Of a stretch of DNA of 32,000 nucleotides, positions 8,185 through 23,955 are shown one piece after another. Both the position numbers and the translations under genes were made by a program. The notes under the pieces were generated by a model, which was not told the DNA's origin, searched no databases, and saw only the letters and a program-made list of their open reading frames with translations. The stretch comes from Patescibacteria group bacterium (GTDB lineage: Bacteria > Patescibacteriota > Patescibacteriia > UBA2591 > UBA6264). Positions within the stretch are counted from its first letter, which is position 1. Each line of letters opens with the position of its first letter. The stretch spans positions 1 to 32,000 of the forward strand of contig JAQTOB010000004.1 in NCBI GenBank assembly GCA_028713575.1. The letters are read 5' to 3'.

Positions 8185-9615
8185 TTATTTTTCTAAAATC
8201 AGTTTTTTACGAACCGTTGCCTGGTCCGTAGACAACTGGTAGATGTATGCGCCGCTGGCGACAAAGTTTCCTTTGTCGTTTTTTCCGTTCCAGATTAACG
8301 CATAACCTCCCGGCTCTTGAAAGCCGCAAAAAAACGTCTTAACAATTTTACCAGTGATATCGAAGATAATGATTTGCACAAATGTTCTTTTAGGAATCCA
8401 ATACTCAATTGTTGTTGCCGAATTAAAGGGATTTGGAAAATTCTGTTTTAAGTCAACGTTTTTTGCCAGGGTAGGAGGGGGGAGAGGATTTTTGATGTTT
8501 GCGTTTTCAGGCACGGCGATCTTAATAGCCCAGGGAATGCCCCTTCCGCCGCTGATTAACAAAAATTTGTCTTGCGTTAAAATAGCGTTACCTGTTTCCA
8601 ATTTTTCCCATTTTTTTTGGTATATTAAATTACCAGAGGCGTCCATTTTGACAACATGTAATTCTTCCCAGCTTGAGTAGGGCTTTGAAAGCCTACCTTT
8701 TATCACTCCGATATACTCATTATTTTTTTCCCAACAACCGAGCATCCCGGCAGGAGACGTTTCACTATTTAGAACATCATTATTCTGCCAAACAACACTT
8801 CCCTGTTTATCAATTTTTATCAGTCCGGCGCAATAAGGTCCGGAGTTATAATTATGTCTTGACATACCGGAGATCAGATAGCCATCTTTTGTAACAGTTA
8901 AATGCGATTCTGCTCCCATTATTTCGTGTTCTGGGTATGTTTTTTGCCAAACAAGATTTCCTTCCCCGTCAAGTTTTATCAAGCCGCCTCTATACCCGGC
9001 AAACTGACCATGAATTCCGCCAAAAAGAACATAATCATCATCATCCTTACCTATTGTTATTCCGCAAACGTCTCCTTCCTTTGGGAGATAAGCTTTTTCC
9101 CATAGAATTTCCAGATTCTGGTCGAATTTTACCAAACAAAAATACCCACCGTCTTCACTTTTTAGAAATCCTAAGGCCGTATAGGTACTGTCTCCGTTTT
9201 CAACTGCGTCAGTCAGGCCTCCCCACGTATAGTTATCTGGCAACCAGGTATTCCTTTTTAATTCATTTCCCAAATTGTCGGTAATTAATAACAAATGGCC
9301 ATTATCAGTACCTCCGATTATTAATAATTTTTCGTCCGCCAGTGTGAAGATTTTATTGGGGTGTGTATAGCCAGTGATGCGGTGCTCTTGATGCCAGATA
9401 ATTTCACCATTTTCTTTTTTTATTTTTAATAAACTCATTTGACCTTGGCACCCTAGGTTGGCGTAGACATAGCCATTTTCCATTTCACCGATTGTCTGAA
9501 TACTAAAATCTGATTCAATAAGTTCCGGATATTCTTTGTCCCATTCTTGGGCGCTTACATTTTGAAAAAATATAAGCGATCCCAACAAAACACTGATAAA
9601 ATATTTTGTTTTCAT
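8185..9615 (-). CDS. Secreted repeat (beta-propeller-like) protein with a T9SS-type / FlgD-Ig-like C-terminal domain
   Basis: Signal peptide MKTKYFISVLLGSLIFFQNVSA|QE. Recurring ...LIKLD..G..VW.K.Y units. C-terminal 86 aa QNFPNPFNSATTIEYWIP...IIIFDITGKIV...GGYALIWNGKNDKGNFVASGAYIYQL...KKLILEK. Strong Shine-Dalgarno sequence. Confidence 0.85.
   Translation of the reverse strand: MKTKYFISVLLGSLIFFQNVSAQEWDKEYPELIESDFSIQTIGEMENGYVYANLGCQGQMSLLKIKKENGEIIWHQEHRITGYTHPNKIFTLADEKLLIIGGTDNGHLLLITDNLGNELKRNTWLPDNYTWGGLTDAVENGDSTYTALGFLKSEDGGYFCLVKFDQNLEILWEKAYLPKEGDVCGITIGKDDDDYVLFGGIHGQFAGYRGGLIKLDGEGNLVWQKTYPEHEIMGAESHLTVTKDGYLISGMSRHNYNSGPYCAGLIKIDKQGSVVWQNNDVLNSETSPAGMLGCWEKNNEYIGVIKGRLSKPYSSWEELHVVKMDASGNLIYQKKWEKLETGNAILTQDKFLLISGGRGIPWAIKIAVPENANIKNPLPPPTLAKNVDLKQNFPNPFNSATTIEYWIPKRTFVQIIIFDITGKIVKTFFCGFQEPGGYALIWNGKNDKGNFVASGAYIYQLSTDQATVRKKLILEK
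8188..8445 (-). other. C-terminal sorting-type domain (T9SS type-A CTD / FlgD Ig-like fold pattern)
   Basis: Pattern N(F/Y)PNPFN-x-x-T-x-I-x-Y ... I(F/Y)D-x-x-G-x-x-V ... G-x-x-x-x-x-W-x-G ... SG-x-Y-x-Y ... KK-x-x-L-x-K at the extreme C-terminus. Confidence 0.65.
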
Positions 9616-9761: not shown

Positions 9762-9840
9762 CTTAGTTTTAACAAACTCATTTACGAGATTATCTACGAG
9801 GCGAGACCTCGTAGATCGTAGATTTTGATCATTACATCCT

Positions 9841-9947
9841 GGGGTCTGACCCCATAAACATTCCTTCTAAAACCCTTATCAACAAAGGATTATATGACAA
9901 AAATTTCAATTTGGTGTGATTTTGATTAAATTTTTTTATCTACGAGG
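9841..9947 (+). repeat. 107-bp repeat element, copy A1, starting with the palindrome GGGGTCTGACCCC
   Basis: Identical base for base to 10036..10142 by manual alignment. Confidence 0.9.
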
Positions 9948-10035
9948 CGAGACCTCGTAGGAGGCGTATCTACGAGGCGAGACCTCGTAGATTGTAAATT
10001 TTTTATGGGGCTTGGGGTCTGACCCCCTGGGGTCT

Positions 10036-10142
10036 GGGGTCTGACCCCATAAACATTCCTTCTAAAACCCTTATCAACAAAGGATTATATGACAAAAATT
10101 TCAATTTGGTGTGATTTTGATTAAATTTTTTTATCTACGAGG
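10036..10142 (+). repeat. 107-bp repeat element, copy A2
   Basis: Identical to 9841..9947, with a 195-bp period. Extra palindrome cores lie at 10014..10026. Confidence 0.9.
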
Positions 10143-10201
10143 TTATCTACGAGGCGAGACCTCGTAGATTGTACCTCGTAGATTGTAAATTTTTTAAAGA
10201 A

Positions 10202-10217: not shown

Positions 10218-11720
10218 ATGAACGCGATAAAAGCAAAAAAAGAAAAAATATTTTTTATTATTATTTTGGTTTTAGTTTCTGTTTTTTTTGTATTATTGCC
10301 CCGTTTCAGTTACGGCCGGCTGTCAGAAAGCCCTTATAGTTCTTTCTACACCTATCCCCTGCACACCGACGAATGGCAGCATTATACTATTAGCATGTCT
10401 TTGGAAGAGAATTTTTTTCACCCCCACGTTTTTTATTATGAGAATTATGAGCCCTTTATTGACGGCAGTCCCTTTTTTCATGAAATTATTTTTTTTGCCC
10501 AAAAGTTGGGTCTTTCTCCAGACAAGTTCTTTGTTTTGCCCATTTTACAAGGAATTTTTTTTGTTTTGATTTTTTTCTTTTTTTTAAGTTTATTTTTTAA
10601 CCCTTCAGTTAGTTTTATTGGCAGTTTGTTGGTTTTTTCCCTCCAAAGCGATGTTAGGATTTTAGGGTTGGTATTTTTTAAGCCCTTTGTTTTGGGTTTT
10701 TGTTTTCTTCTCTTGGCCCTTATTATTTTCCAACGGAAAAAAAGAGTTTCTTTTGCTTTTGTGATTTTCAGCTTGATGTCATTTTTTTGTTATCCGCCCT
10801 TAGTTTTGTTATTAATAATTTATGTTTTTGTTTATGGTTTGGTCAACAAAAAAATTGACAAAAAATATTTATTTTACATTGGTTTTTTGATTGTCCTGGC
10901 ATTACTCTTCGGCTTAATTATTTTTAAAAATAACGCTTCTTTTTTAATGGATAAAATAATTTATAAAGGTTATCTTAGCGGTCAAGACAGGACCGCTGTC
11001 CCTGAATATTTAAATATCTTTTTAGTTGTTTTAGGGTTGCTAGGATTTTTAAAGACGATAAAAAAGAAAGAATTTTGGCCTTGCCATAGTTTGTTTATTT
11101 TTTTGTTGCTGGATTTTATTTTAGCCACGATTTTTAGATTTAGTTTGGGTTTTCACTATATGAGGATTATTTATTTTATCGGCATTTTTCTCGGCGTTTA
11201 TGTTGCTTATATTTTAGTCTATATTTTCAAAAATTTCAGTTTTTTTTCAAAAAGAAAAACATTGGCCACAGTTTGCCTTTTTTTGATTGTTCTGGCGATT
11301 TTGGTTCCTAATTTTAAATTTTATGCCCGGTCCCTTTCCTCCTTTAATCCGGCTGTTCATGCTCGGTGGTTGGGTCAAAATAATTTGCAGGTTCTGGAAT
11401 ATTTGAAAGAAAGAAACAATAAAGAGGCAAAACTTTTGCATCTGCCTTATTTGGGCGCGGTGATTACTCCCTTGACCGGGTTTAAGGCTACGGCCGTATT
11501 TTCCGCTTTTACCGGAGGGAAAAAAAATAAATATGACGAGATATTCAACTCTCCCAAGGACTGCCAAAAAATAAAAGAAATTATTGACGAAGAGAATTAT
11601 AATTTATTATGGATGAAACGAAAAATTGATTGCCCTTTTTTAGAGTTAATTTTTAACAATAATTTCAATTTTATTTATCAATATAATCCAACAATTTATA
11701 ATTTGGGGCCTGGGGTCTGA
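10218..11720 (+). CDS. Polytopic membrane protein, possibly a GT-C-type glycosyltransferase or polymerase (weak call)
   Basis: 500 aa with more than 10 hydrophobic Phe/Leu-rich segments, an early acidic loop (HTDEWQHY) and a soluble C-terminal ~130 aa. It neighbours a glycan cluster. There is no diagnostic motif, so the function is tentative. Confidence 0.55.
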   Translation: MNAIKAKKEKIFFIIILVLVSVFFVLLPRFSYGRLSESPYSSFYTYPLHTDEWQHYTISMSLEENFFHPHVFYYENYEPFIDGSPFFHEIIFFAQKLGLSPDKFFVLPILQGIFFVLIFFFFLSLFFNPSVSFIGSLLVFSLQSDVRILGLVFFKPFVLGFCFLLLALIIFQRKKRVSFAFVIFSLMSFFCYPPLVLLLIIYVFVYGLVNKKIDKKYLFYIGFLIVLALLFGLIIFKNNASFLMDKIIYKGYLSGQDRTAVPEYLNIFLVVLGLLGFLKTIKKKEFWPCHSLFIFLLLDFILATIFRFSLGFHYMRIIYFIGIFLGVYVAYILVYIFKNFSFFSKRKTLATVCLFLIVLAILVPNFKFYARSLSSFNPAVHARWLGQNNLQVLEYLKERNNKEAKLLHLPYLGAVITPLTGFKATAVFSAFTGGKKNKYDEIFNSPKDCQKIKEIIDEENYNLLWMKRKIDCPFLELIFNNNFNFIYQYNPTIYNLGPGV

Positions 11721-11791
11721 CCCCCTAAACATCCCTTCTAAAATTGGGTTGGGGCCTGGGGTCTGACCCCCTAAACATCCCTTCTAAAATT
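11705..11791 (+). repeat. Tandem 41-bp direct repeat GGGGCCTGGGGTCTGACCCCCTAAACATCCCTTCTAAAATT (x2, 46-bp period)
   Basis: 11705..11745 equals 11751..11791. The first copy contains the last six codons and the TGA stop of the upstream gene. Confidence 0.9.
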
Positions 11792-11850
11792 CGCATCAAT
11801 AAAGGGTTATAGAGCAAAAATTTCAATTTGGTGCGATTTTGATTGATTTT
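11758..11850 (+). repeat. Diverged copy (B) of the GGGGTCTGACCCC element
   Basis: Aligns along its length with copies A1/A2 at roughly 85% identity by eye. The 3' block AAAAATTTCAATTTGGTG(T/C)GATTTTGATT is conserved. Confidence 0.8.
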
Positions 11851-12036
11851 AATATCGCAGCAATATTGCAGGCGAAACTTGTAATATTGACACTTAATAT
11901 GAGTCCAAGATATTGCCCTTTACGATTTTTCCGAATGGTTTTATAATATAAACATAAATAATTAATAAAATTTATAGACCCTGTTAGAAATTTTAAGTAA
12001 ATAGAATTTTTAATCGGGACCAAGAGAACAAAATTT

Positions 12037-12696
12037 ATGGAAAATTCTAAAGAAATAAAAAAAGCTTGGTTAATCGTCGTTGCCCTGATTTTAATCGTTT
12101 TGGTTATTGTTTTTTTTGGTAAAACAAAAACAGCCCCAACTGAAGAAATTCTTTCTAATGAGGGCGAGGTTTTAGAACCAGTCGTGGCGGTTACTGAAAT
12201 AACAGAAACAGAAACAGGTCCTTCTGAAGGAGAACAGGCAATGGAAGGACAAAAAGCCCTTGAGTCGGCAAAAACTTTGGCTTTAAATATGAATCAAGTG
12301 TCAGCCGAGGGCGTGGTTTTAACCACCAATGGTTTGCCGGCGGACAATTCTGCCTTGCCTGGCTCATTTGCCGCGCCTTACCAATCGGAAGTTTTAGAGG
12401 AAAATGAAATTCCTCGTGGAGCCATAAGATTAAAAATTTCAGTTGATGGTTTTGAGCCAAAAGAAATTAGCGCCGTCGCGGGAAAAGCCGTGATTATCGC
12501 CTTGACTTCAATGGATGAAAATGTTCATATTCTGCGGTTTGAAGACGAATCCTTACGAGGAATAAGAATCATTGTTTCTCCGGAAGAAACCCGAGCCATT
12601 GTTTTTAATGCGCCGGAAAAAGGGGACTATGCTTTTTATTGTGAAGCGGAAGGCCATCAGGAGCGCGGCGAAAGCGGCACGATGCGTGTAAAGTAA
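12037..12696 (+). CDS. Membrane-anchored cupredoxin-like domain protein (paralogue 1)
   Basis: N-terminal TM helix, acidic linker and a C-terminal domain ending FYCEAEGHQERGESGTMRVK. Cys-x4-His-x8-Met plus the upstream His in VHILRF gives a type-1 copper ligand pattern. It is clearly paralogous to 18591..19169. Confidence 0.75.
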   Translation: MENSKEIKKAWLIVVALILIVLVIVFFGKTKTAPTEEILSNEGEVLEPVVAVTEITETETGPSEGEQAMEGQKALESAKTLALNMNQVSAEGVVLTTNGLPADNSALPGSFAAPYQSEVLEENEIPRGAIRLKISVDGFEPKEISAVAGKAVIIALTSMDENVHILRFEDESLRGIRIIVSPEETRAIVFNAPEKGDYAFYCEAEGHQERGESGTMRVK

Positions 12697-18590: not shown

Positions 18591-19169
18591 ATGACGCAAA
18601 AAAATACTACTCGGATAATCATTGCCGTGATTATCTTGGTTGTTCTCGGTTTAATTTTATTAACCGCGCCAAAAACTACGCCAAAACCGGAAACAAATTT
18701 AGGAGAAGAGCTGGAAACAGATAAAGAAGCAACTTCAATTGAATTGGAAAGTTTGGTTCCGGGAGCCAGTCCGGTTTCGGAAAAAGGCGAAGTTTTGACA
18801 ACCGAAGGCAAAGCGACCGACAACGCGGCCATTCCCGGTTCGCCGGACGCGCCTAAGCAATCTGCTTCTTTAAAAGAGGAAGAAATTCCAGAAGAAGCAG
18901 TTAAAATTTCCGTTTCTACCAACGGCTTTACTCCTAATGAATTTAAAGTTAAAGCCAAAAGCGCGATTACTCTTTCTCTTACTTCCACAGATATGACCCA
19001 TGTTTTCAAATTTGATGACCCGGTTCTGCAGGCCATTGCCATCGGTGTGGGAGGTAAGGAAACCCGAGCTATTACTTTCAATGCGCCTTCAGCTGGCGAC
19101 TACACTTTTTATTGCGATGTGCCTGGTCATCGTGGTCGTGGCGAAACAGGCGTGATGCATGTTGAATAA
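18591..19169 (+). CDS. Membrane-anchored cupredoxin-like domain protein (paralogue 2)
   Basis: Ends FYCDVPGHRGRGETGVMHVE and aligns over ~130 aa with 12037..12696. The antisense ORF 18575..19081 is rejected. Confidence 0.8.
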   Translation: MTQKNTTRIIIAVIILVVLGLILLTAPKTTPKPETNLGEELETDKEATSIELESLVPGASPVSEKGEVLTTEGKATDNAAIPGSPDAPKQSASLKEEEIPEEAVKISVSTNGFTPNEFKVKAKSAITLSLTSTDMTHVFKFDDPVLQAIAIGVGGKETRAITFNAPSAGDYTFYCDVPGHRGRGETGVMHVE

Positions 19170-19234: not shown

Positions 19235-20704
19235 TTACGGACCAATCAAATTATTGGCGATTATCTTATAATCTTGATCATAAATAAATATGCTTAAGGC
19301 GATACTTTGACATTGCTTTGGTAAAAGAAGACTATCTTCAGTCGTTTTATCAAGACAGATTAACGGCTTTTCATTCACCAAAATATCCCGAGAAACAATA
19401 ACAATTATTTTTTGATTTTTATATTCTTTTTTATCCCGCAGTGATAATTGATTGTTTTCTTTAGATACCGAAAGTAGATGATTTCTTAATTGATGATAAT
19501 GAAAATCAAATGATTGTTGAAAGCCGGAAACGATTTTTTGATTATCAGTAATAAACGCGCTTTCATCATTATTATAATTGGCTAAAAGGCTCCAATTATT
19601 AGTGCCAAAAAGCGCAGTTTTCCCGTCTATAATCAGAACATGATGATGAAGAAAAGAATTAAAAATTTCTTCGCCAATAGAACCTGGTATTTCATCATTA
19701 AAATCAAAAGTTCGCCAAACGTCGTCTAAGATTTCAAGATTGTCTATTTTTTTTCTCCATTTTTCATAAAGAAGCAAGTTAAAAGCGGAATCAGGTTTCC
19801 AAAGATTAAAGTCGTCAGTGATGATTTTAATATTTATTCCTTGTTCTGCTTTTTGCAAAATAGCTTTAGCGATTTTTCTATCCGTGAGTTGCCAAATCAT
19901 TATTTCTATGTCTTTTTCCGCTTCCTTGATTAAATCAATGATTTTTTCATTAAGAGAATTAGTTTTGAATCCCGGACTCCACCAAAGGTCAAAAAAACAA
20001 TCGTTAAAATTTATTCTTTTTGCCCAGGGCCGATAGCCGTTTTCCCCCAGTTTTTTGATGCCGCTTAATCCGTTTTTCAATCTAATAAATTCATGATAAT
20101 AAGTTTTAATAATTTCTTCTTCATTGGTGGTAAAAAGAAAACTGGGGTCAAATTGTTCCTGCCAGTCTGTCCAATTAAGGGACTCAACAATTAAATTTTG
20201 ATTATTTGTCCCCTCATCAATAATTAGAAATTTATGATGCATATAGCCGAGATCGGTATTAGCGTCTATTCTTTTAATACCCGAGGGCAAGTCGTAAAAA
20301 ACAAGATTATGTTGTTCTTCTTTTTCTTTGTCAAAAATCATGGTTATCTTTACGCCCCTTTGTTTTGCCCGATAAAGCTCTTCTTTAAAACCTTCTAAAT
20401 TAAAGGAATACATGGCCAGATCAATGGTTTTTTTTGCATTTTTAATTTTTTTTATAATAATTTCAGAAAACAAATTGGTCTTGAATTCATTATTGAAATA
20501 TATTTCGCCTCTAAAGTCGTTTTTTGATTCAACTTCCTGATGAGAAATGTATTTTGGCAATTTGAAATTAAATAAATTCCAAGCGGTTATTTTTTTAGAA
20601 ACAAGAACAAGAAAAAAACAAAGAAAGAAAAAAATAATCAAACCAAGGGTAATAATTTTAAATTTTTTCAACCCCTTTTTGGAATAGAAAATATTTTTTA
20701 TCAT
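19235..20704 (-). CDS. Membrane-anchored phospholipase D superfamily protein (two HKD-type motifs)
   Basis: N-terminal TM helix (IITLGLIIFFFLCFFLVLV). Motif 1 is MHHKFLIID (aa 155-163). Motif 2 is LHHHVLIIDGKTALFGTNNWS (aa 352-372), with His at the Lys position. Confidence 0.8.
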   Translation of the reverse strand: MIKNIFYSKKGLKKFKIITLGLIIFFFLCFFLVLVSKKITAWNLFNFKLPKYISHQEVESKNDFRGEIYFNNEFKTNLFSEIIIKKIKNAKKTIDLAMYSFNLEGFKEELYRAKQRGVKITMIFDKEKEEQHNLVFYDLPSGIKRIDANTDLGYMHHKFLIIDEGTNNQNLIVESLNWTDWQEQFDPSFLFTTNEEEIIKTYYHEFIRLKNGLSGIKKLGENGYRPWAKRINFNDCFFDLWWSPGFKTNSLNEKIIDLIKEAEKDIEIMIWQLTDRKIAKAILQKAEQGINIKIITDDFNLWKPDSAFNLLLYEKWRKKIDNLEILDDVWRTFDFNDEIPGSIGEEIFNSFLHHHVLIIDGKTALFGTNNWSLLANYNNDESAFITDNQKIVSGFQQSFDFHYHQLRNHLLSVSKENNQLSLRDKKEYKNQKIIVIVSRDILVNEKPLICLDKTTEDSLLLPKQCQSIALSIFIYDQDYKIIANNLIGP

Positions 20705-22382
20705 ATTTTAATAAAGAATTATCTTGACCGGAAAGAACGATAAAAATTGATTCTTTCAGCTGATTGGTTAAAATTTTGAAGACTTTGTTCGTTATTTCGT
20801 TATTTAGGTCAGCATAAATAGCGTCCACGATTATTAACAAAGGCTTTTTTATCAGGCAATAAGCGGCCTGCAAAGAAAAAAGTTCCGTTAAATTCATTTT
20901 CATTGATTGAAAATCATGACCCATGAATTTGCTTAATGACATAATAAAATTAAATTCTTTAAAGGGAGAAAGTGTTTGAAATGTTTTTTCAACATCTAGG
21001 GGCGTAATGTCTTCTTTATTTTTTCCTGTTAAAATTTCACCGATTTTTTTTTCCGTTGACAAATCGTTTTTGATAAAATAAGCGGGAAAAGAGGCTTGCT
21101 GCCAATGTTTGTAAAAAAATCTTTTACCATTGATTTTTACTATCCAGCTGGAAATATTGAATTGACCTTGACCGGAAAAAATAAGACCTAACTGATTTTT
21201 ATTTGGATTTTTCCCAAAAATGAGAATTTTTTCACTTTTTTTGAATTCAAATTTTAGATGATGCGAATATCCGTCTGATTTTATTAATTTTGTTTTTTTT
21301 GCATTAAAGGAAATGGTTTGGAAATTTTTGAAATTGATAAATCGGCGCTTATTGGTTTTAGATTTAGGAACAGAGAGGATTAGCCCCAGCTTGGTAGGCA
21401 ATGAATAAAATCCGATTTGTAAACTGGTGTAGAGTAAGCGAGTGAGATAAAAGATAATGATGCCAGAAAGAAATAGATTGCCAATTTCTATTTGCAGAAA
21501 AAAAGAAGGAAAATATATTTGCAAAATATAAAATATTCCGGCCAAAAGAATTAAAAGAGCGAAAATTACCCGTGGTCCGAAATTGAGCCAAAGATTTCGG
21601 CGGATGCGAAAATAAGTGTCAATTTTTACTAAATCATCAAGTTTTTTCAAGCTTTTTTCTTCCAAGCGATGGCTTTGAATAAAGGGCAATTCATAAAGGT
21701 CGGTTACAATATTTTTGATTATTTCCGAATACAAAGTGGTTTCCTTGGTAATGTAGTTTTTTGCAATGAAATAGCCAATAACTCCAATGGCGATGTTTAT
21801 AGGAATGAAGGCAAGAACAATGATTAAAAGTTTTGTGTTATAGAAAAAAGTGATGGAGATTAGTCCTAAAATATAAAGAATCCAACGCATTGAACCAATA
21901 AGGCTTTTTTCAACCCCCATTTGTAGCAAAGGAAGATGATATGATATTTTGGCAATTAAAGAGGCCTTGTTTTGACTTTTTGTTTTGAAAAAGGGACGAT
22001 GCAGGAAGATTTTAAACCAACCCCTTCTCAAATCGTTTAATAAATAAACAATTAGGGTTTTTTCTATTTTTAAACCAATAAAAGAACAAACAAGATAAAT
22101 CATTACTCCGGCGGAGAGAATAAAAAAAACGATTGGCATTTTTTTGCGGATTAAAAGAGCGCTGAATTGGGAAATAAAACTGTGGCTAAACAAAGACAAA
22201 ATAACTTCTAAAATAACCAGAAAGAAAATAAGCAAAATCATGATTTTTACTTCTTTTTTGTGTTTTTTTATAAAACGCAAAAGGTATTGGAAATGAAAAT
22301 TTTCCAATTTCAGTTGATGGATGTTTTTTTTAATTTTTTCCCTTTGTTGATACAAAGAGATCTGATAGTTTTTTTCTTCCAT
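20658..22382 (-). CDS. ABC type-I exporter homologue (6 TM + NBD-like domain) with degenerate ATPase motifs
   Basis: TMD pattern FQYLLRFIKKHKKEVKIMILLIFF..., LNDLRRGWFKIFLHRPFFKT. In the NBD-like region, Walker A is GKNPNKNQ, the signature is LTELF and Walker B is LLIIVDA (no catalytic Glu). ATG 22382 is preferred over the tracked TTG 22394 because GAGGT lies 5 nt upstream. Confidence 0.75.
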   Translation of the reverse strand: MEEKNYQISLYQQREKIKKNIHQLKLENFHFQYLLRFIKKHKKEVKIMILLIFFLVILEVILSLFSHSFISQFSALLIRKKMPIVFFILSAGVMIYLVCSFIGLKIEKTLIVYLLNDLRRGWFKIFLHRPFFKTKSQNKASLIAKISYHLPLLQMGVEKSLIGSMRWILYILGLISITFFYNTKLLIIVLAFIPINIAIGVIGYFIAKNYITKETTLYSEIIKNIVTDLYELPFIQSHRLEEKSLKKLDDLVKIDTYFRIRRNLWLNFGPRVIFALLILLAGIFYILQIYFPSFFLQIEIGNLFLSGIIIFYLTRLLYTSLQIGFYSLPTKLGLILSVPKSKTNKRRFINFKNFQTISFNAKKTKLIKSDGYSHHLKFEFKKSEKILIFGKNPNKNQLGLIFSGQGQFNISSWIVKINGKRFFYKHWQQASFPAYFIKNDLSTEKKIGEILTGKNKEDITPLDVEKTFQTLSPFKEFNFIMSLSKFMGHDFQSMKMNLTELFSLQAAYCLIKKPLLIIVDAIYADLNNEITNKVFKILTNQLKESIFIVLSGQDNSLLKYDKKYFLFQKGVEKI

Positions 22383-23568
22383 GATGGACCTCAAGATAAT
22401 ATTTATATAAAGAAGGGATTTTAATATTTTTCAAATCCTTTTTTAGTTTTTTTTGTAATCGGGGAGAATAAGAACCGTAAAAATATTTAGTAATGATGCG
22501 GAAAAAAGTTTCAGACAAATTTTTAATTTGTTGTTCGTCATTAACTAAGATTTTTTGGCTGATAATTTGCAATAATTGGTTATTTAAAGAATTCTCTTTT
22601 TTATAAAGAAGTTGGGAAAAATGTTTCATTTTATTTTTTGGCTTAAAAGAAAGAAGTGACGTCCGCCAATAACTTATGGTTTTTTTAACAAATGAGTCCT
22701 CTAAACTAATTAAACGGTCATGGAAACAATAGCCTAAAAAATTAAATTTTTCTTTTCCATTTATCAATCTGGTTTTTTCTTTTTTAATTTCTAATTTTAA
22801 TTCTTTAAGGTGTTGATATAAATATTTTTCAATTTCTTTAAGTTTTTTTAGACTTGGGTCAAAGGCGATTAAATCGTCGCCGATGCGACGATAAAGGCAA
22901 ATTTTTGGCCCCAAGTATTTGTCTAGGTCGTCCAAATAAAGATTAGTAAAAAGGGCGATTAAAGGCACGCCTTGAATAACGCCGATTTTTGGCTGATAAA
23001 TTTTTTTATCCTTATAAACCGCATTTTTAATGAAAAGTTTAAGGATTTCCATCAGCGGTTTTTCAGAAATAGTTTTTTCAAGTTTGGTTATTAAAATATC
23101 TTGGTCAATGTAATCGGAATAATTTTTAAGGTCGGCAATCAGAATAAAATCTTTATCATAATAACGTTGATAGCGTCGCGCCACGCTACGACTGGCGTAA
23201 AAACTGCTATGAGAAGAACGATAAGAGAATAGATAAGGCGAATAAAGATTTTCAAAAATTGGCTCTAAAACCCGATAAATAGCTTGAGCTTTAATTCGGG
23301 CTCTAACTGAATAAACATATATGTCTCTTAAAGAACCGTCTTTTTTTGGAATGTAATGGCAAATAGCTGGCGCCAAAGGAGTAATTTCAATTAATTCTTT
23401 CCTCGCTTTTTGGCAGAATTCTTCTGCCTGAGATTTAACGTCGTTTAGGCCAAGTCCTTCAATGCCGACGTATCTTGCCGTTAAGGATTTTTGGTCAAAT
23501 TTTTTAGCCAAATCCAAATAGGCCTGCCGAATGTTTTTAATGTCAATTATTTTTTCAAAAAGTTTCAT
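22330..23568 (-). CDS. Stand-alone reverse transcriptase (group-II-intron-like / retron-like RT fold, unclassified)
   Basis: RT motifs IPKKDGSLRDIYVYSVRARI, FILIADLKNYSDYID, GVIQGVPLIALFTNLYLDDLD, LYRRIGDDLIAF, LEIKKEKTRL, FNFLGYCF. There is a ~125-aa C-terminal thumb-like region and no nuclease domain. Confidence 0.85.
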   Translation of the reverse strand: MKLFEKIIDIKNIRQAYLDLAKKFDQKSLTARYVGIEGLGLNDVKSQAEEFCQKARKELIEITPLAPAICHYIPKKDGSLRDIYVYSVRARIKAQAIYRVLEPIFENLYSPYLFSYRSSHSSFYASRSVARRYQRYYDKDFILIADLKNYSDYIDQDILITKLEKTISEKPLMEILKLFIKNAVYKDKKIYQPKIGVIQGVPLIALFTNLYLDDLDKYLGPKICLYRRIGDDLIAFDPSLKKLKEIEKYLYQHLKELKLEIKKEKTRLINGKEKFNFLGYCFHDRLISLEDSFVKKTISYWRTSLLSFKPKNKMKHFSQLLYKKENSLNNQLLQIISQKILVNDEQQIKNLSETFFRIITKYFYGSYSPRLQKKLKKDLKNIKIPSLYKYYLEVHHGRKKLSDLFVSTKGKN

Positions 23569-23578
23569 TTTTATATCA

Positions 23579-23618
23579 AGCCCCGTATTTCAAAAACAAA
23601 ATACGGGGCTGTTTTTTT
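23579..23618 (+). other. Strong hairpin with a T7 tract on the plus strand, 10 nt upstream of the RT start codon
   Basis: AGCCCCGTATTT-CAAAAACA-AAATACGGGGCT followed by G-TTTTTTT. The stem is 12 bp and perfect. It has terminator geometry only in the plus orientation, where there is no upstream plus-strand gene. Confidence 0.6.
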
Positions 23619-23832
23619 ACCATAACATGGCAATGCCCAACGGCGAGCCATTAATCAAGTCAAATTGAGATAACAGTGCTAAATAGGTTTTTTTTATTTT
23701 TTTTATTATTTCACTTGCTGTTTTGGTATTAGGCGGTTTTATAACAACAAGCCGGATAATTTTTAATACCCCTTATTTAAAGAGTGGTTATGGTTTTAAT
23801 TTAATTGAAATTTTTATTTGAACAGCAATTAT

Positions 23833-23844
23833 TGGAAATTTCCA
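23833..23844. promoter_or_regulatory. 12-bp perfect palindrome TGGAAATTTCCA (possible operator)
   Basis: Self-complementary and located in the divergent intergenic region between the RT cassette and the LamG protein gene. Confidence 0.3.
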
Positions 23845-23926
23845 TTCAACTACATTTTAACACGGATTTTAAAAAATTGATATGCTTGTCTTGTGGAAAA
23901 GTTTTTAAATTAATTGAAGTTTTTAA

Positions 23927-23955
23927 TTGTTATTTTCCCCTTTTTATACTATAAT
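23927..23955 (+). promoter_or_regulatory. Sigma70-like promoter for the LamG-repeat protein gene
   Basis: -35 TTGTTA (23927..23932), 17-nt spacer, -10 TATAAT (23950..23955). It lies inside the tracked TTG-initiated N-terminal extension. Confidence 0.45.

Follow-up and report, generated by a model that had tools for sequence, protein, structure and literature searches.

The first 32,000 nucleotides of contig JAQTOB010000004.1 (assembly GCA_028713575.1, Patescibacteria group bacterium), referred to here as the window, carry on the minus strand a cassette of three overlapping genes encoding a reverse transcriptase (RT), a membrane protein resembling ATP-binding cassette (ABC) exporters (the ABC-like protein) and a protein of the phospholipase D (PLD) family, preceded by a predicted structured non-coding RNA (ncRNA). 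Our computational analyses largely show that the three genes form an obligate, always-linked unit with one rearranged exception. Scanning one genome for each GTDB species with an RT profile gave 59 loci, whose RTs are 35-60% identical to the window RT; the ABC-like gene lies 3' of the RT gene in all 59 of these, and the PLD gene lies 3' of the ABC-like gene in 56/56 loci with a long enough contig, on the same strand and mostly overlapping. With the ABC-like protein as bait, a different collection from that of the RT scan yielded 28 metagenome loci, with an RT gene upstream in 28/28 and a PLD gene downstream in 26/28, the contigs of the remaining two (L069 and L093) stopping before the PLD position. 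The PLD bait gave about 83 family members followed by a sharp drop in score; three contexts were looked up, of which P0349 and P0354 show the order RT, ABC-like, PLD, and the third (P0373, on a divergent contig, locus L100) is rearranged. There (1-6198), the RT and ABC-like genes share one strand and diverge, across a 470-nt spacer, from a pair made of a second ABC gene, with a true ABC_tran Pfam match, and the PLD gene. All locus counts are lower bounds, since the bait patterns limit sensitivity, and recurrence in at least 87 independent loci excludes a chance arrangement. A preliminary description of the window had proposed one self-contained unit around a stand-alone RT, and the linkage found from both the RT and the ABC-like baits bears this out: the same gene order recurs in other genomes, no case was found of an RT without its partners or of an ABC-like protein without the RT, and the alternative offered at the time, of an RT that is only an adjacent passenger, is refuted.

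The preliminary description had also noted a 345-bp non-coding leader. The gap (23569..23913) is indeed free of open reading frames (ORFs), but its most informative part had been overlooked, namely a conserved ncRNA with a predicted structure, which is the fourth part of the cassette. Aligned with loci at 58-74% RT identity, the window leader displays blocks of nucleotide conservation and compensatory changes, and all upstream regions inspected have one architecture in common, of about 175-290 nt, with a four-way junction, a pseudoknot and a hypervariable arm. From 5' to 3', this comprises a long closing helix P1, an AAAAC linker, the P2 hairpin, a 6-7-nt strand pairing with the apical loop of P4, the three-part P4 itself, the hypervariable arm P5, which varies from long hairpins to an A-rich stretch, a CUCAUUGGAUUUAAU-like single strand, the P6 hairpin and the 3' strand of P1. 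Searches using nhmmer with a four-sequence seed recovered the window clade only, iterated searches reached 32 loci, and a covariance model (CM) was required to join the subfamilies. CM R1, built from 19 sequences of a subclade other than that of the window, matches directly 5' of the RT gene in at least 45 of 61 loci and in most independently collected loci; in about 13 divergent loci (L003-L008, L027, L035, L039, L044, L049 and L052) the ncRNA was recognised by eye, and the rearranged locus L100 gave no ncRNA match with CM R1. The match in the window (23618..23800, minus strand, 17.2 bits, E 0.79) is weak and falls at the exact expected position; on its close relatives L060, L001 and L002 the model reaches E values of 5e-5 to 8e-7, and the alignment points unambiguously to homology between the window RNA and these CM-positive relatives.

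The predicted structure is supported by covariation. Across 34 sequences, 90.0% of cells are paired, compared with 40-43% in slid controls, double-sided changes occur at 54/57 pairs (27-31 in slid controls) and the covariation score is 0.68 (0.12-0.13 in slid controls). The six-pair pseudoknot helix is 97.5% paired and 6/6 of its pairs covary; because the pseudoknot is absent from the CM, the alignment was not fitted to it. In the window clade alone pairing reaches 94% (31-46% in slid controls), the structure having been derived from these same sequences. A pseudoknot descriptor search was dropped as a statistic since it proved too permissive (56 loci, with 37 expected from shuffles), and no Rfam family matches the ncRNA. 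In locus L040 (4794-7992) the ncRNA (5802-5981) lies about 2 kb upstream of the RT gene, amid three tandem paralogous type IV pilin-like genes, and in L076 it occupies 153-371, with the RT gene at 2174 and an opposite-strand gene for a 468-aa secreted protein between them. Tandem ncRNA copies stand 5' of a single RT gene in L012 (921-1189 and 1227-1508), L059 (7390-7655 and 7694-7984), L024 (7516-7702 and 7819-7998), L032 (7632-7801 and 7805-7997) and L091 (3380-3558 and 3566-3776); in the aligned pairs of L012 and L059, the 5' and 3' domains are near-identical and the central arm differs, with stems kept via compensatory changes. The separation of about 2 kb in L040 and L076 and the arm-only differences between tandem copies both favour an RNA gene in its own right, with a region for specificity or templating. 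In most loci the 3' strand of P1 (…CUUGGGGGUGAUUUUUAAAAUAUG) holds the likely Shine-Dalgarno (SD) sequence of the RT gene and ends 3-12 nt before the ATG; given that this strand contains the SD-like GGGGGUGAU in most members, the RNA probably limits RT translation in cis.

The RT itself is largely shown to be a group-II-intron-like enzyme without an intron RNA. It matches Pfam RVT_1 with 69 bits, and its best sequence matches are RTs of group II introns and CRISPR-associated RTs (CRISPR-RTs), with 126 bits for GsI-IIC and 146 bits for TIGR04416, the NCBIfam model of group II RT/maturases, whose cut-off is 300; lower scores were obtained for UG26, of the unknown group (UG) RTs (119 bits), for the defence-associated RTs (DRTs) DRT9 (65-74) and DRT2 (54), for the group-II-like (G2L) RT G2L4 (38) and for retron Ec86 (31). 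In PADLOC the RT matched profiles of three kinds only, generic, UG26 and CRISPR-RT, with scores of 113-139 bits. The AlphaFold2 (AF2) model (pLDDT 89.9) predicts fingers, palm, thumb and C-terminal domains and superposes over its full length on GsI-IIC with a template modelling (TM) score of 0.79, DRT9 and G2L4 coming next. The cassette has no endonuclease (En) domain and no integrase. A group II intron, which would have refuted the reading of the preliminary description, was rejected: neither Intron_gpII nor group-II-D1D4 was matched in Rfam, whether with gathering thresholds or with E<=5, and the 53-nt overlap of the RT stop with the next gene counts against such an intron as well. The catalytic motifs are all invariant across the family. 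Motif C reads Y-x-R-(V/I)-G-D-D in 60/60 sequences of the L001-L059 alignment, with G230 likewise in 60/60, and replaces YADD/YIDD; the residue aligned with GsI-IIC F143, which we take to be the counterpart of the HIV-1 Y115 steric gate, is Ser or Thr in 57/60, with an invariant Tyr/Phe just before it. A Pfam RdRP_1 match is precomputed for several RT homologues. The combination of VGDD or IGDD with Ser/Thr at the steric-gate position may confer an altered sugar selectivity.

The ABC-like protein reaches 27 bits with Pfam ABC_membrane, just below the cut-off of 28, and has no ABC_tran match. Its AF2 model (pLDDT 75.7) aligns full-length to MsbA, BmrCD and TM287/288, and Foldseek comparisons with type IV exporters give E values of 1e-14 to 1e-12 over about 570 aligned columns, the predicted fold being a six-transmembrane, MsbA-type transmembrane domain (TMD) followed by a C-terminal nucleotide-binding domain (NBD). 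The preliminary description considered the ATPase site dead. This applies to the whole family with respect to Walker B, which reads hhhhDNxWxD and has the catalytic Glu replaced by Asn or Ala family-wide, and with respect to the LSGGQ signature and the H-loop His, both of which are missing; it does not apply to Walker A, whose loss is peculiar to the window copy, the GxxxxGK[ST] P-loop being kept in about 45 of 52 homologues. From these motifs, the protein is most likely a nucleotide-binding, hydrolysis-poor pseudo-transporter. The family is small, well separated and confined to the RT cassette: out of 1.84 billion representatives, its profile recovers 90 clusters at E<=1e-30, and ordinary ABC exporters come next at about 55 bits. 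In L097 (3324-5029), ORF calling divides the ABC-like gene into a 210-aa and a 352-aa frame, through either a gene split or a frameshift; the organism has been sampled widely (its PLD, P0349, occurs in 85 collection blocks, and 24 contigs were read). ABC-like ORFs are interrupted in L047, L057, L010 and L025 too.

As for the third protein, described initially as an anchored PLD with two HKD motifs, the two PLDc_2 domains and the first motif (HKD1, H156/K158/D163, invariant in 53/53) are as proposed, and the second (HKD2, H353/H355/D360) is an HxHxxxxD variant, HxH(x)4D...GTxN, in which His takes the place of Lys in 53/53. Among solved structures, Zucchini/MitoPLD, NucT and Nuc are nearest to the protein; although source records annotate it as 'cardiolipin synthase-like', it scores 87 bits with NucT versus 30 bits with cardiolipin synthase. 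A single N-terminal transmembrane helix is flanked by a mean of 5.0 Lys/Arg residues on its N-terminal side versus 2.2 on its C-terminal side, with an N-terminal excess in 46/53 proteins, and by the positive-inside rule the catalytic domain is therefore predicted to face outward. Together, these data largely identify the protein as a putative membrane-anchored, two-domain HKD phosphodiesterase of the Nuc/NucT/Zucchini clade, with nucleic acid or phospholipid as its possible substrate. The invariant catalytic residues of the PLD and the conservation of the P-loop, of the Asp and of 'DNxWxD' in the ABC-like protein largely show that all parts of the cassette are under purifying selection.

With respect to distribution, the cassette is largely shown to be a horizontally mobile accessory unit specific to bacteria of the candidate phyla radiation (CPR)/Patescibacteria. 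The named phyla among the 59 RT-found genomes are CPR/Patescibacteria lineages; about half of the 59 records are titled 'uncultured Gammaproteobacteria', which we take to be a placeholder label, and one is titled Flavobacteriaceae. A cassette with an identical RT occurs on seven contigs read, including the Patescibacteria metagenome-assembled genome GCA_028711035.1 and JGI 3300037067. Several genomes harbour two or three diverged copies, the co-resident copies all being 36-43% identical to the window RT, a divergence measured against that RT and not copy to copy. The flanking genes show no synteny among loci. Pilin-like, cupredoxin-like, sigma-factor and housekeeping genes are the neighbours met most often; among 145 flanking proteins, Pfam identifies mostly housekeeping or surface genes, with Cupredoxin_1 as the most frequent family (5 matches), and 14 loci carry pilin-like genes upstream of the cassette. 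The patchy distribution, the unrelated flanks and the presence of two to three diverged copies in some genomes fit an accessory or conflict module. A phage-borne element was considered and rejected: of 2.9 million viral contigs one matched, and the phage matches in GenBank all cover less than 80% of the RT and stay at or below 29% identity. No universal fourth protein gene was found in the loci. In about 11 of them, a gene for a transmembrane-anchored protein of about 195 aa without a Pfam match lies directly 3' of the PLD gene, on the same strand and at a median gap of 76 nt (for example L020 12110-12727, L013 12189-12788, L018 12189-12764 and L016 12166-12732), and this may represent a subclade-specific fourth protein.

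The layout of the window copy is given in Table 1. The ORF list agrees with the preliminary description on the coordinates of the three minus-strand genes and on their overlaps (53 nt between RT and ABC-like, 47 nt between ABC-like and PLD), and the GAGGT ribosome-binding site inside the RT frame, 6 nt 5' of the likely ABC-like start at ATG 22382, and the perfect 19-bp terminator (GAGAACAAAAATATCCCGG-ATTAA-CCGGGATATTTTTGTTCTC) were likewise found as described. The hairpin between the ncRNA and the RT gene retains its structure in relatives and varies in sequence. In L001 and L002 the equivalent hairpin is followed by a U-run on the cassette strand, and in the window a terminator scan calls the plus strand only (GTTTTTTTAC 3' of the hairpin), antisense to the cassette; whether the hairpin terminates or attenuates minus-strand transcription is uncertain. 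A TGnTATAAT-like box, recognised by eye, stands 10-20 nt 5' of the ncRNA start in many related loci, and a promoter scan of the window upstream of the ncRNA gave scores no better than shuffles.

Table 1. Coordinates of the cassette, of its RNA elements and of neighbouring features in the window
Feature	Position	Strand	Remarks
RT gene	22330..23568	minus	412 aa; ORF list, Pfam RVT_1
RT motif C, RIGDD	22873..22887	minus	
RT S151	23116..23118	minus	
ABC-like gene	20658..22382	minus	574 aa from ATG 22382; ORF reaches 22394 from TTG
PLD gene	19235..20704	minus	489 aa; two PLDc_2 domains
Structured ncRNA core (predicted)	23620..23793	minus	conservation and compensatory changes, CM match, covariation
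P1 closing helix	23787-23793 with 23620-23626	minus	
P2 hairpin	23769-23784	minus	
Pseudoknot	GGUAUUA 23764-23770 with UAAUACC 23725-23731	minus	
P4 long hairpin	23705-23760	minus	
A-rich variable region	23686-23704	minus	
Conserved single strand CUCAAUUUGACUUGAUUAAU	23650-23669	minus	
P6 hairpin	23627-23651	minus	
12-bp GC-rich hairpin AGCCCCGUAUUU...AAAUACGGGGCU	23579..23610	minus	between ncRNA and RT ATG
Presumed promoter region 5' of ncRNA	23794..23913	minus	inferred
Perfect 19-bp inverted repeat, 5-nt loop	19183..19225		bidirectional terminator-like; also serves convergent cupredoxin gene
Cupredoxin-like gene	18591..19169	plus	membrane-anchored
Cupredoxin-like gene	12037..12696	plus	membrane-anchored
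LamG-domain giant surface protein	23914..27699		1261 aa
IS200/IS605-type Y1 transposase gene	27963..28661	plus	
ORF without Pfam match	10218..11720		500 aa
Repeat units around this ORF	9832..10193 and 11703..11864		109-195 nt
Hint-domain protein gene	2872..8115	plus	1747 aa
ORF with FlgD-Ig / Por_Secre_tail C-terminus	8185..9615	minus	

Several neighbouring features of the window deserve mention. Cupredoxin-like membrane-anchored proteins recur beside the cassette, with two genes in the window and five flanking genes elsewhere, and one of those in the window converges on the terminator that it shares with the cassette. On the other side, the cassette adjoins the gene for the LamG-domain protein, past which, about 4.4 kb upstream of the RT start, lies the Y1 transposase gene. 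The 500-aa ORF is flanked by repeat units with GC palindromes (GGGGTCTGACCCC and CGAGGCGAGACCTCG), upstream as two identical copies at 195-nt spacing and downstream as a 77% copy with 46-nt tandem repeats, which may be a mobile or regulatory element. Residues 1213-1352 of the 1747-aa protein form a pretoxin-HINT/intein-like Hint domain, suggesting a surface protein of the polymorphic-toxin type, and the ORF with the FlgD-Ig C-terminus lies beside the gene for this protein.

How such a cassette might operate can be approached by analogy, and we assign a probability of roughly 0.5 to the reading in which it would follow the logic of retrons and DRTs, implemented by a G2L RT with membrane partners. 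The RT would bind its cognate ncRNA via the conserved core of four-way junction and pseudoknot and would use the hypervariable arm as a template or hold it as a specificity element, giving a cytoplasmic ribonucleoprotein, perhaps with cDNA. This particle could engage the cytoplasmic pseudo-ATPase domains of an ABC-like dimer and so control the state of the membrane pair formed with the PLD. Perturbation of the RT, of the RNA or of the product, most likely through infection by a phage or another invader, would switch the membrane module, upon which the ABC-like TMD might open or translocate and the PLD might cleave phosphodiester substrates at the outer face, be they nucleic acid or phospholipid (a lipid substrate being possible within this model), with invader exclusion or growth arrest as the outcome. 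A defence role is plausible by analogy. A number of observations weigh against this reading. The RT falls outside the retron lineage, and probably outside the UG/abortive infection (Abi) lineages, that have proven defence roles. The window copy of the ABC-like protein has a degenerate Walker A (GKN-PNKNQ) and, having no GK[ST] P-loop, implies that nucleotide binding cannot be essential in every member of the family. The variable arm of the window RNA amounts to an A-rich stretch, no frame or strand is consistently stop-free among the ncRNAs, no partner in the manner of a template repeat/variable repeat (TR/VR) pair was found for the arm, and its role as a template is pure inference on our part. 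The PLD domain is predicted to be extracytoplasmic, so that simple degradation of phage DNA in the cytoplasm, or the logic of an intracellular nuclease effector, would not apply directly. PADLOC reveals no enrichment of defence families among the 145 nearest flanking genes, with matches limited to generic helicase-type models in at most four proteins, those to Cas3 models being generic DEAD helicases. With these flanks and the predicted location of the PLD, defence as put forward in the preliminary description remains an analogy.

The outward-facing PLD and the exporter fold could also be read the other way round, as parts of a nucleic-acid export or surface machine in which the RT product made from the ncRNA, or nucleotides, would cross the membrane via the ABC-like dimer, and the outward nuclease would process that product or environmental DNA, in the service of episymbiosis, DNA uptake or nucleotide scavenging and not of immunity. 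The kinship of the PLD with the secreted and membrane nucleases NucT, Nuc and Zucchini and its predicted N-in/C-out topology, the full exporter fold predicted for the ABC-like protein, the unusual RT active site (VGDD with Ser at the steric-gate position), the absence of a defence-island signal in the flanks and the surface or pilus neighbours (the pilin-like genes of 14 loci, the L040 ncRNA amid pilin paralogues, the LamG protein beside the window cassette) all speak for it. However, pilin and surface genes are common in CPR genomes generally, which makes the neighbourhood signal weak, an NBD without catalytic Glu, signature and H-loop makes ATP-driven export unlikely, patchy, multi-copy genes misfit a core nutritional function, and we know of no ABC exporter that moves nucleic acid; we therefore hold this reading, the main rival, to be unlikely, with an appreciable chance nonetheless. 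A bolder version, which we consider improbable, starts from the invariant RdRP-like VGDD and the Ser/Thr at the steric-gate position, which would suit synthesis of RNA or of a mixed polymer: the polymerase would copy the variable arm, and its product would pass through a hydrolysis-dead ABC conduit and be trimmed outside by the HKD nuclease, as an RT-driven device for nucleic-acid secretion or surface display by episymbiotic CPR bacteria toward hosts or competitors. No secretion or display machine of this kind is known to us.

Other readings remove one of the parts from the system. The upstream RNA could be a cis-regulatory operon leader only, acting in RT autoregulation like domain DIVa of group II introns or as a riboswitch, with the RT working in a template-independent or host-RNA-directed manner. 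Group II RTs bind an RNA hairpin that covers their own ribosome-binding site, and the likely SD sequence in the 3' strand of P1, 3-12 nt from the ATG in most loci, is what such a leader would present; yet the window clade has a hairpin and about 50 nt between P1 and the ATG, in L040 and L076 about 2 kb with other genes intervene between the ncRNA and the RT gene, many loci have a -10-like box immediately 5' of the RNA, and a simple leader would hardly call for tandem ncRNAs whose central arms differ, so that this account seems rather unlikely. That the cassette is a mobile retroelement, either a group II intron that has degenerated or a new kind of retrotransposon with cargo genes, appears quite improbable: the RT is nearest to those of mobile group II introns, some genomes have several copies, the genomic contexts vary and the window has an IS200-type Y1 transposase at a distance of about 4 kb, but Rfam detected no group II intron RNA domains, En and integrase are lacking, neither the ncRNA nor the cassette showed flanking repeats, purifying selection acts on the genes as an operon, and the intragenomic copies, at 36-43% identity to the window RT, are diverged paralogues rather than recent insertions. 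Finally, the resemblance of the TMD to the lipid flippase MsbA, the cardiolipin synthase-like annotation of the PLD and the dependence of CPR bacteria on scavenged lipids would suit a flippase paired with a phospholipase or cardiolipin synthase for membrane remodelling, with the RT as an unrelated neighbour. This we regard as highly improbable in view of the strict linkage and overlaps with RT and ncRNA whichever bait is used, with the rearranged L100 as sole exception, of the restriction of the ABC-like family to this cassette and of the preference of the PLD for the NucT over the cardiolipin synthase model.

From a broader point of view, free-standing members of the group-II-like RT lineage are, to our knowledge, mostly unexplained, and the immune and conflict repertoire of CPR/Patescibacteria is, as far as we know, almost unknown. 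We classify as new the RNA family and the two effector types, which had not previously been linked to RTs. The partners are unprecedented for an RT, consisting of a complete predicted ABC-exporter fold in the form of a pseudo-enzyme and of a predicted outward-facing HKD phosphodiesterase, and they would link reverse transcription to a membrane or surface event. The ncRNA, a new covariation-supported family with a pseudoknot and a hypervariable arm, offers an experimental handle and possibly a basis for programmable RT tools, and VGDD together with the steric-gate Ser raises a testable question on RT sugar selectivity.

Compared with known systems, the cassette is apparently undescribed and, as the preliminary description had supposed, matches no named type. 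PADLOC provides only generic matches for the RT and a domain-level match for the PLD (to DrmC only), and it has none for the ABC-like protein; in the open-access papers searched, no description of RT, ABC-like and PLD together or of the cassette RNA was found. Among the partners, full-length structural similarity relates the ABC-like protein to type IV (MsbA/ABCB-type) exporters, including the degenerate-site TM287/288 and BmrCD, and most members keep the P-loop, but an ABC-like homodimer would lack the catalytic Glu, LSGGQ and the H-loop His at both sites. Similarly, the PLD shares the PLDc_2 HKD fold with Nuc, NucT, Zucchini (MitoPLD) and DrmC of DISARM, and its N-terminal anchor with Zucchini, and bacterial Nuc and NucT are extracytoplasmic; on the other hand, the cassette protein has two domains in one chain, an HxH second motif and its coupling to an RT and an ABC-like protein. 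With regard to the RT, group II and G2L enzymes provide the best similarity in both sequence and fold, with fingers, palm, thumb and C-terminal domains and no En domain, and the pattern of similarity, by scores and not by phylogeny, fits a group II/CRISPR-RT branch without intron RNA. The cassette RT differs from group II RTs in its TIGR04416 score under the cut-off, in the lack of an intron RNA, in VGDD instead of YADD/YIDD and in Ser/Thr at the position of GsI-IIC F143, and from both group II and G2L RTs in having a dedicated ncRNA and two membrane partners; with a score of only 38 bits, it is not G2L4. Diversity-generating retroelements (DGRs) were rejected, as in 11 loci the only repeats of the ncRNA region are the tandem ncRNA copies and low-complexity A-runs, and a DGR RT is a mid-rank fold match only; CRISPR-RTs were rejected too, the window having neither a CRISPR array nor cas genes. 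A template for a DRT2-like de novo gene (Neo-like) was rejected because no stop-free reading frame is consistent among the ncRNAs.

The closest functional parallels are with retrons and with the class 2 UG/Abi RTs. Retrons combine an msr-msd ncRNA, an RT and an effector, for example type I-A (Ec78/Eco7) with the PtuA ATPase and the PtuB nuclease, or type IV (Ec48) with a two-transmembrane effector. The cassette resembles them in having a structured ncRNA just 5' of the RT gene, with a long terminal closing helix and a variable hairpin arm, effector genes that follow in a single operon and either pair an ATPase-like with a nuclease-family protein or encode membrane proteins, and a patchy distribution. 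It differs from them in its RT, for which the PDB Ec86 and Ec78 enzymes reach 24-31 bits against 126 for group II RTs and the PADLOC retron models at most 30.7 bits (RT_II-A) against 139 for the generic RT model, in its RNA, which has a conserved AAAAC linker after the 5' strand of P1, no conserved branching G and a core of pseudoknot and four-way junction unlike msr-msd, and in its effectors, a predicted ABC exporter fold and a predicted outward-facing PLD. With class 2 UG/Abi RTs (DRT2, DRT9/UG28, DRT10/UG17 and UG26) it has in common a stand-alone RT with a cognate structured ncRNA just upstream, an RNA on which those known RTs depend, and DRT9 is the second-best structural match to the RT (TM score 0.64-0.69); such systems usually have no separate effector genes. 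UG26 is the best UG profile for the RT (119 bits over 47-344 of 398 positions), below the generic (139) and group II (146) scores. Mestre et al. 2022 (PMC9226505) report its co-location with a YcjD-like endonuclease, in 9/35 members, and not with genes of the ABC or PLD kind; this YcjD-like partner is absent from the cassette. The cassette appears, by this comparison, to work like a retron or a class 2 DRT with an RT that lies outside the retron lineage and probably outside that of the DRTs, and it would add to the systems built of RT, ncRNA and effectors, such as retrons and DRTs, a branch based on a group-II-intron-like RT.

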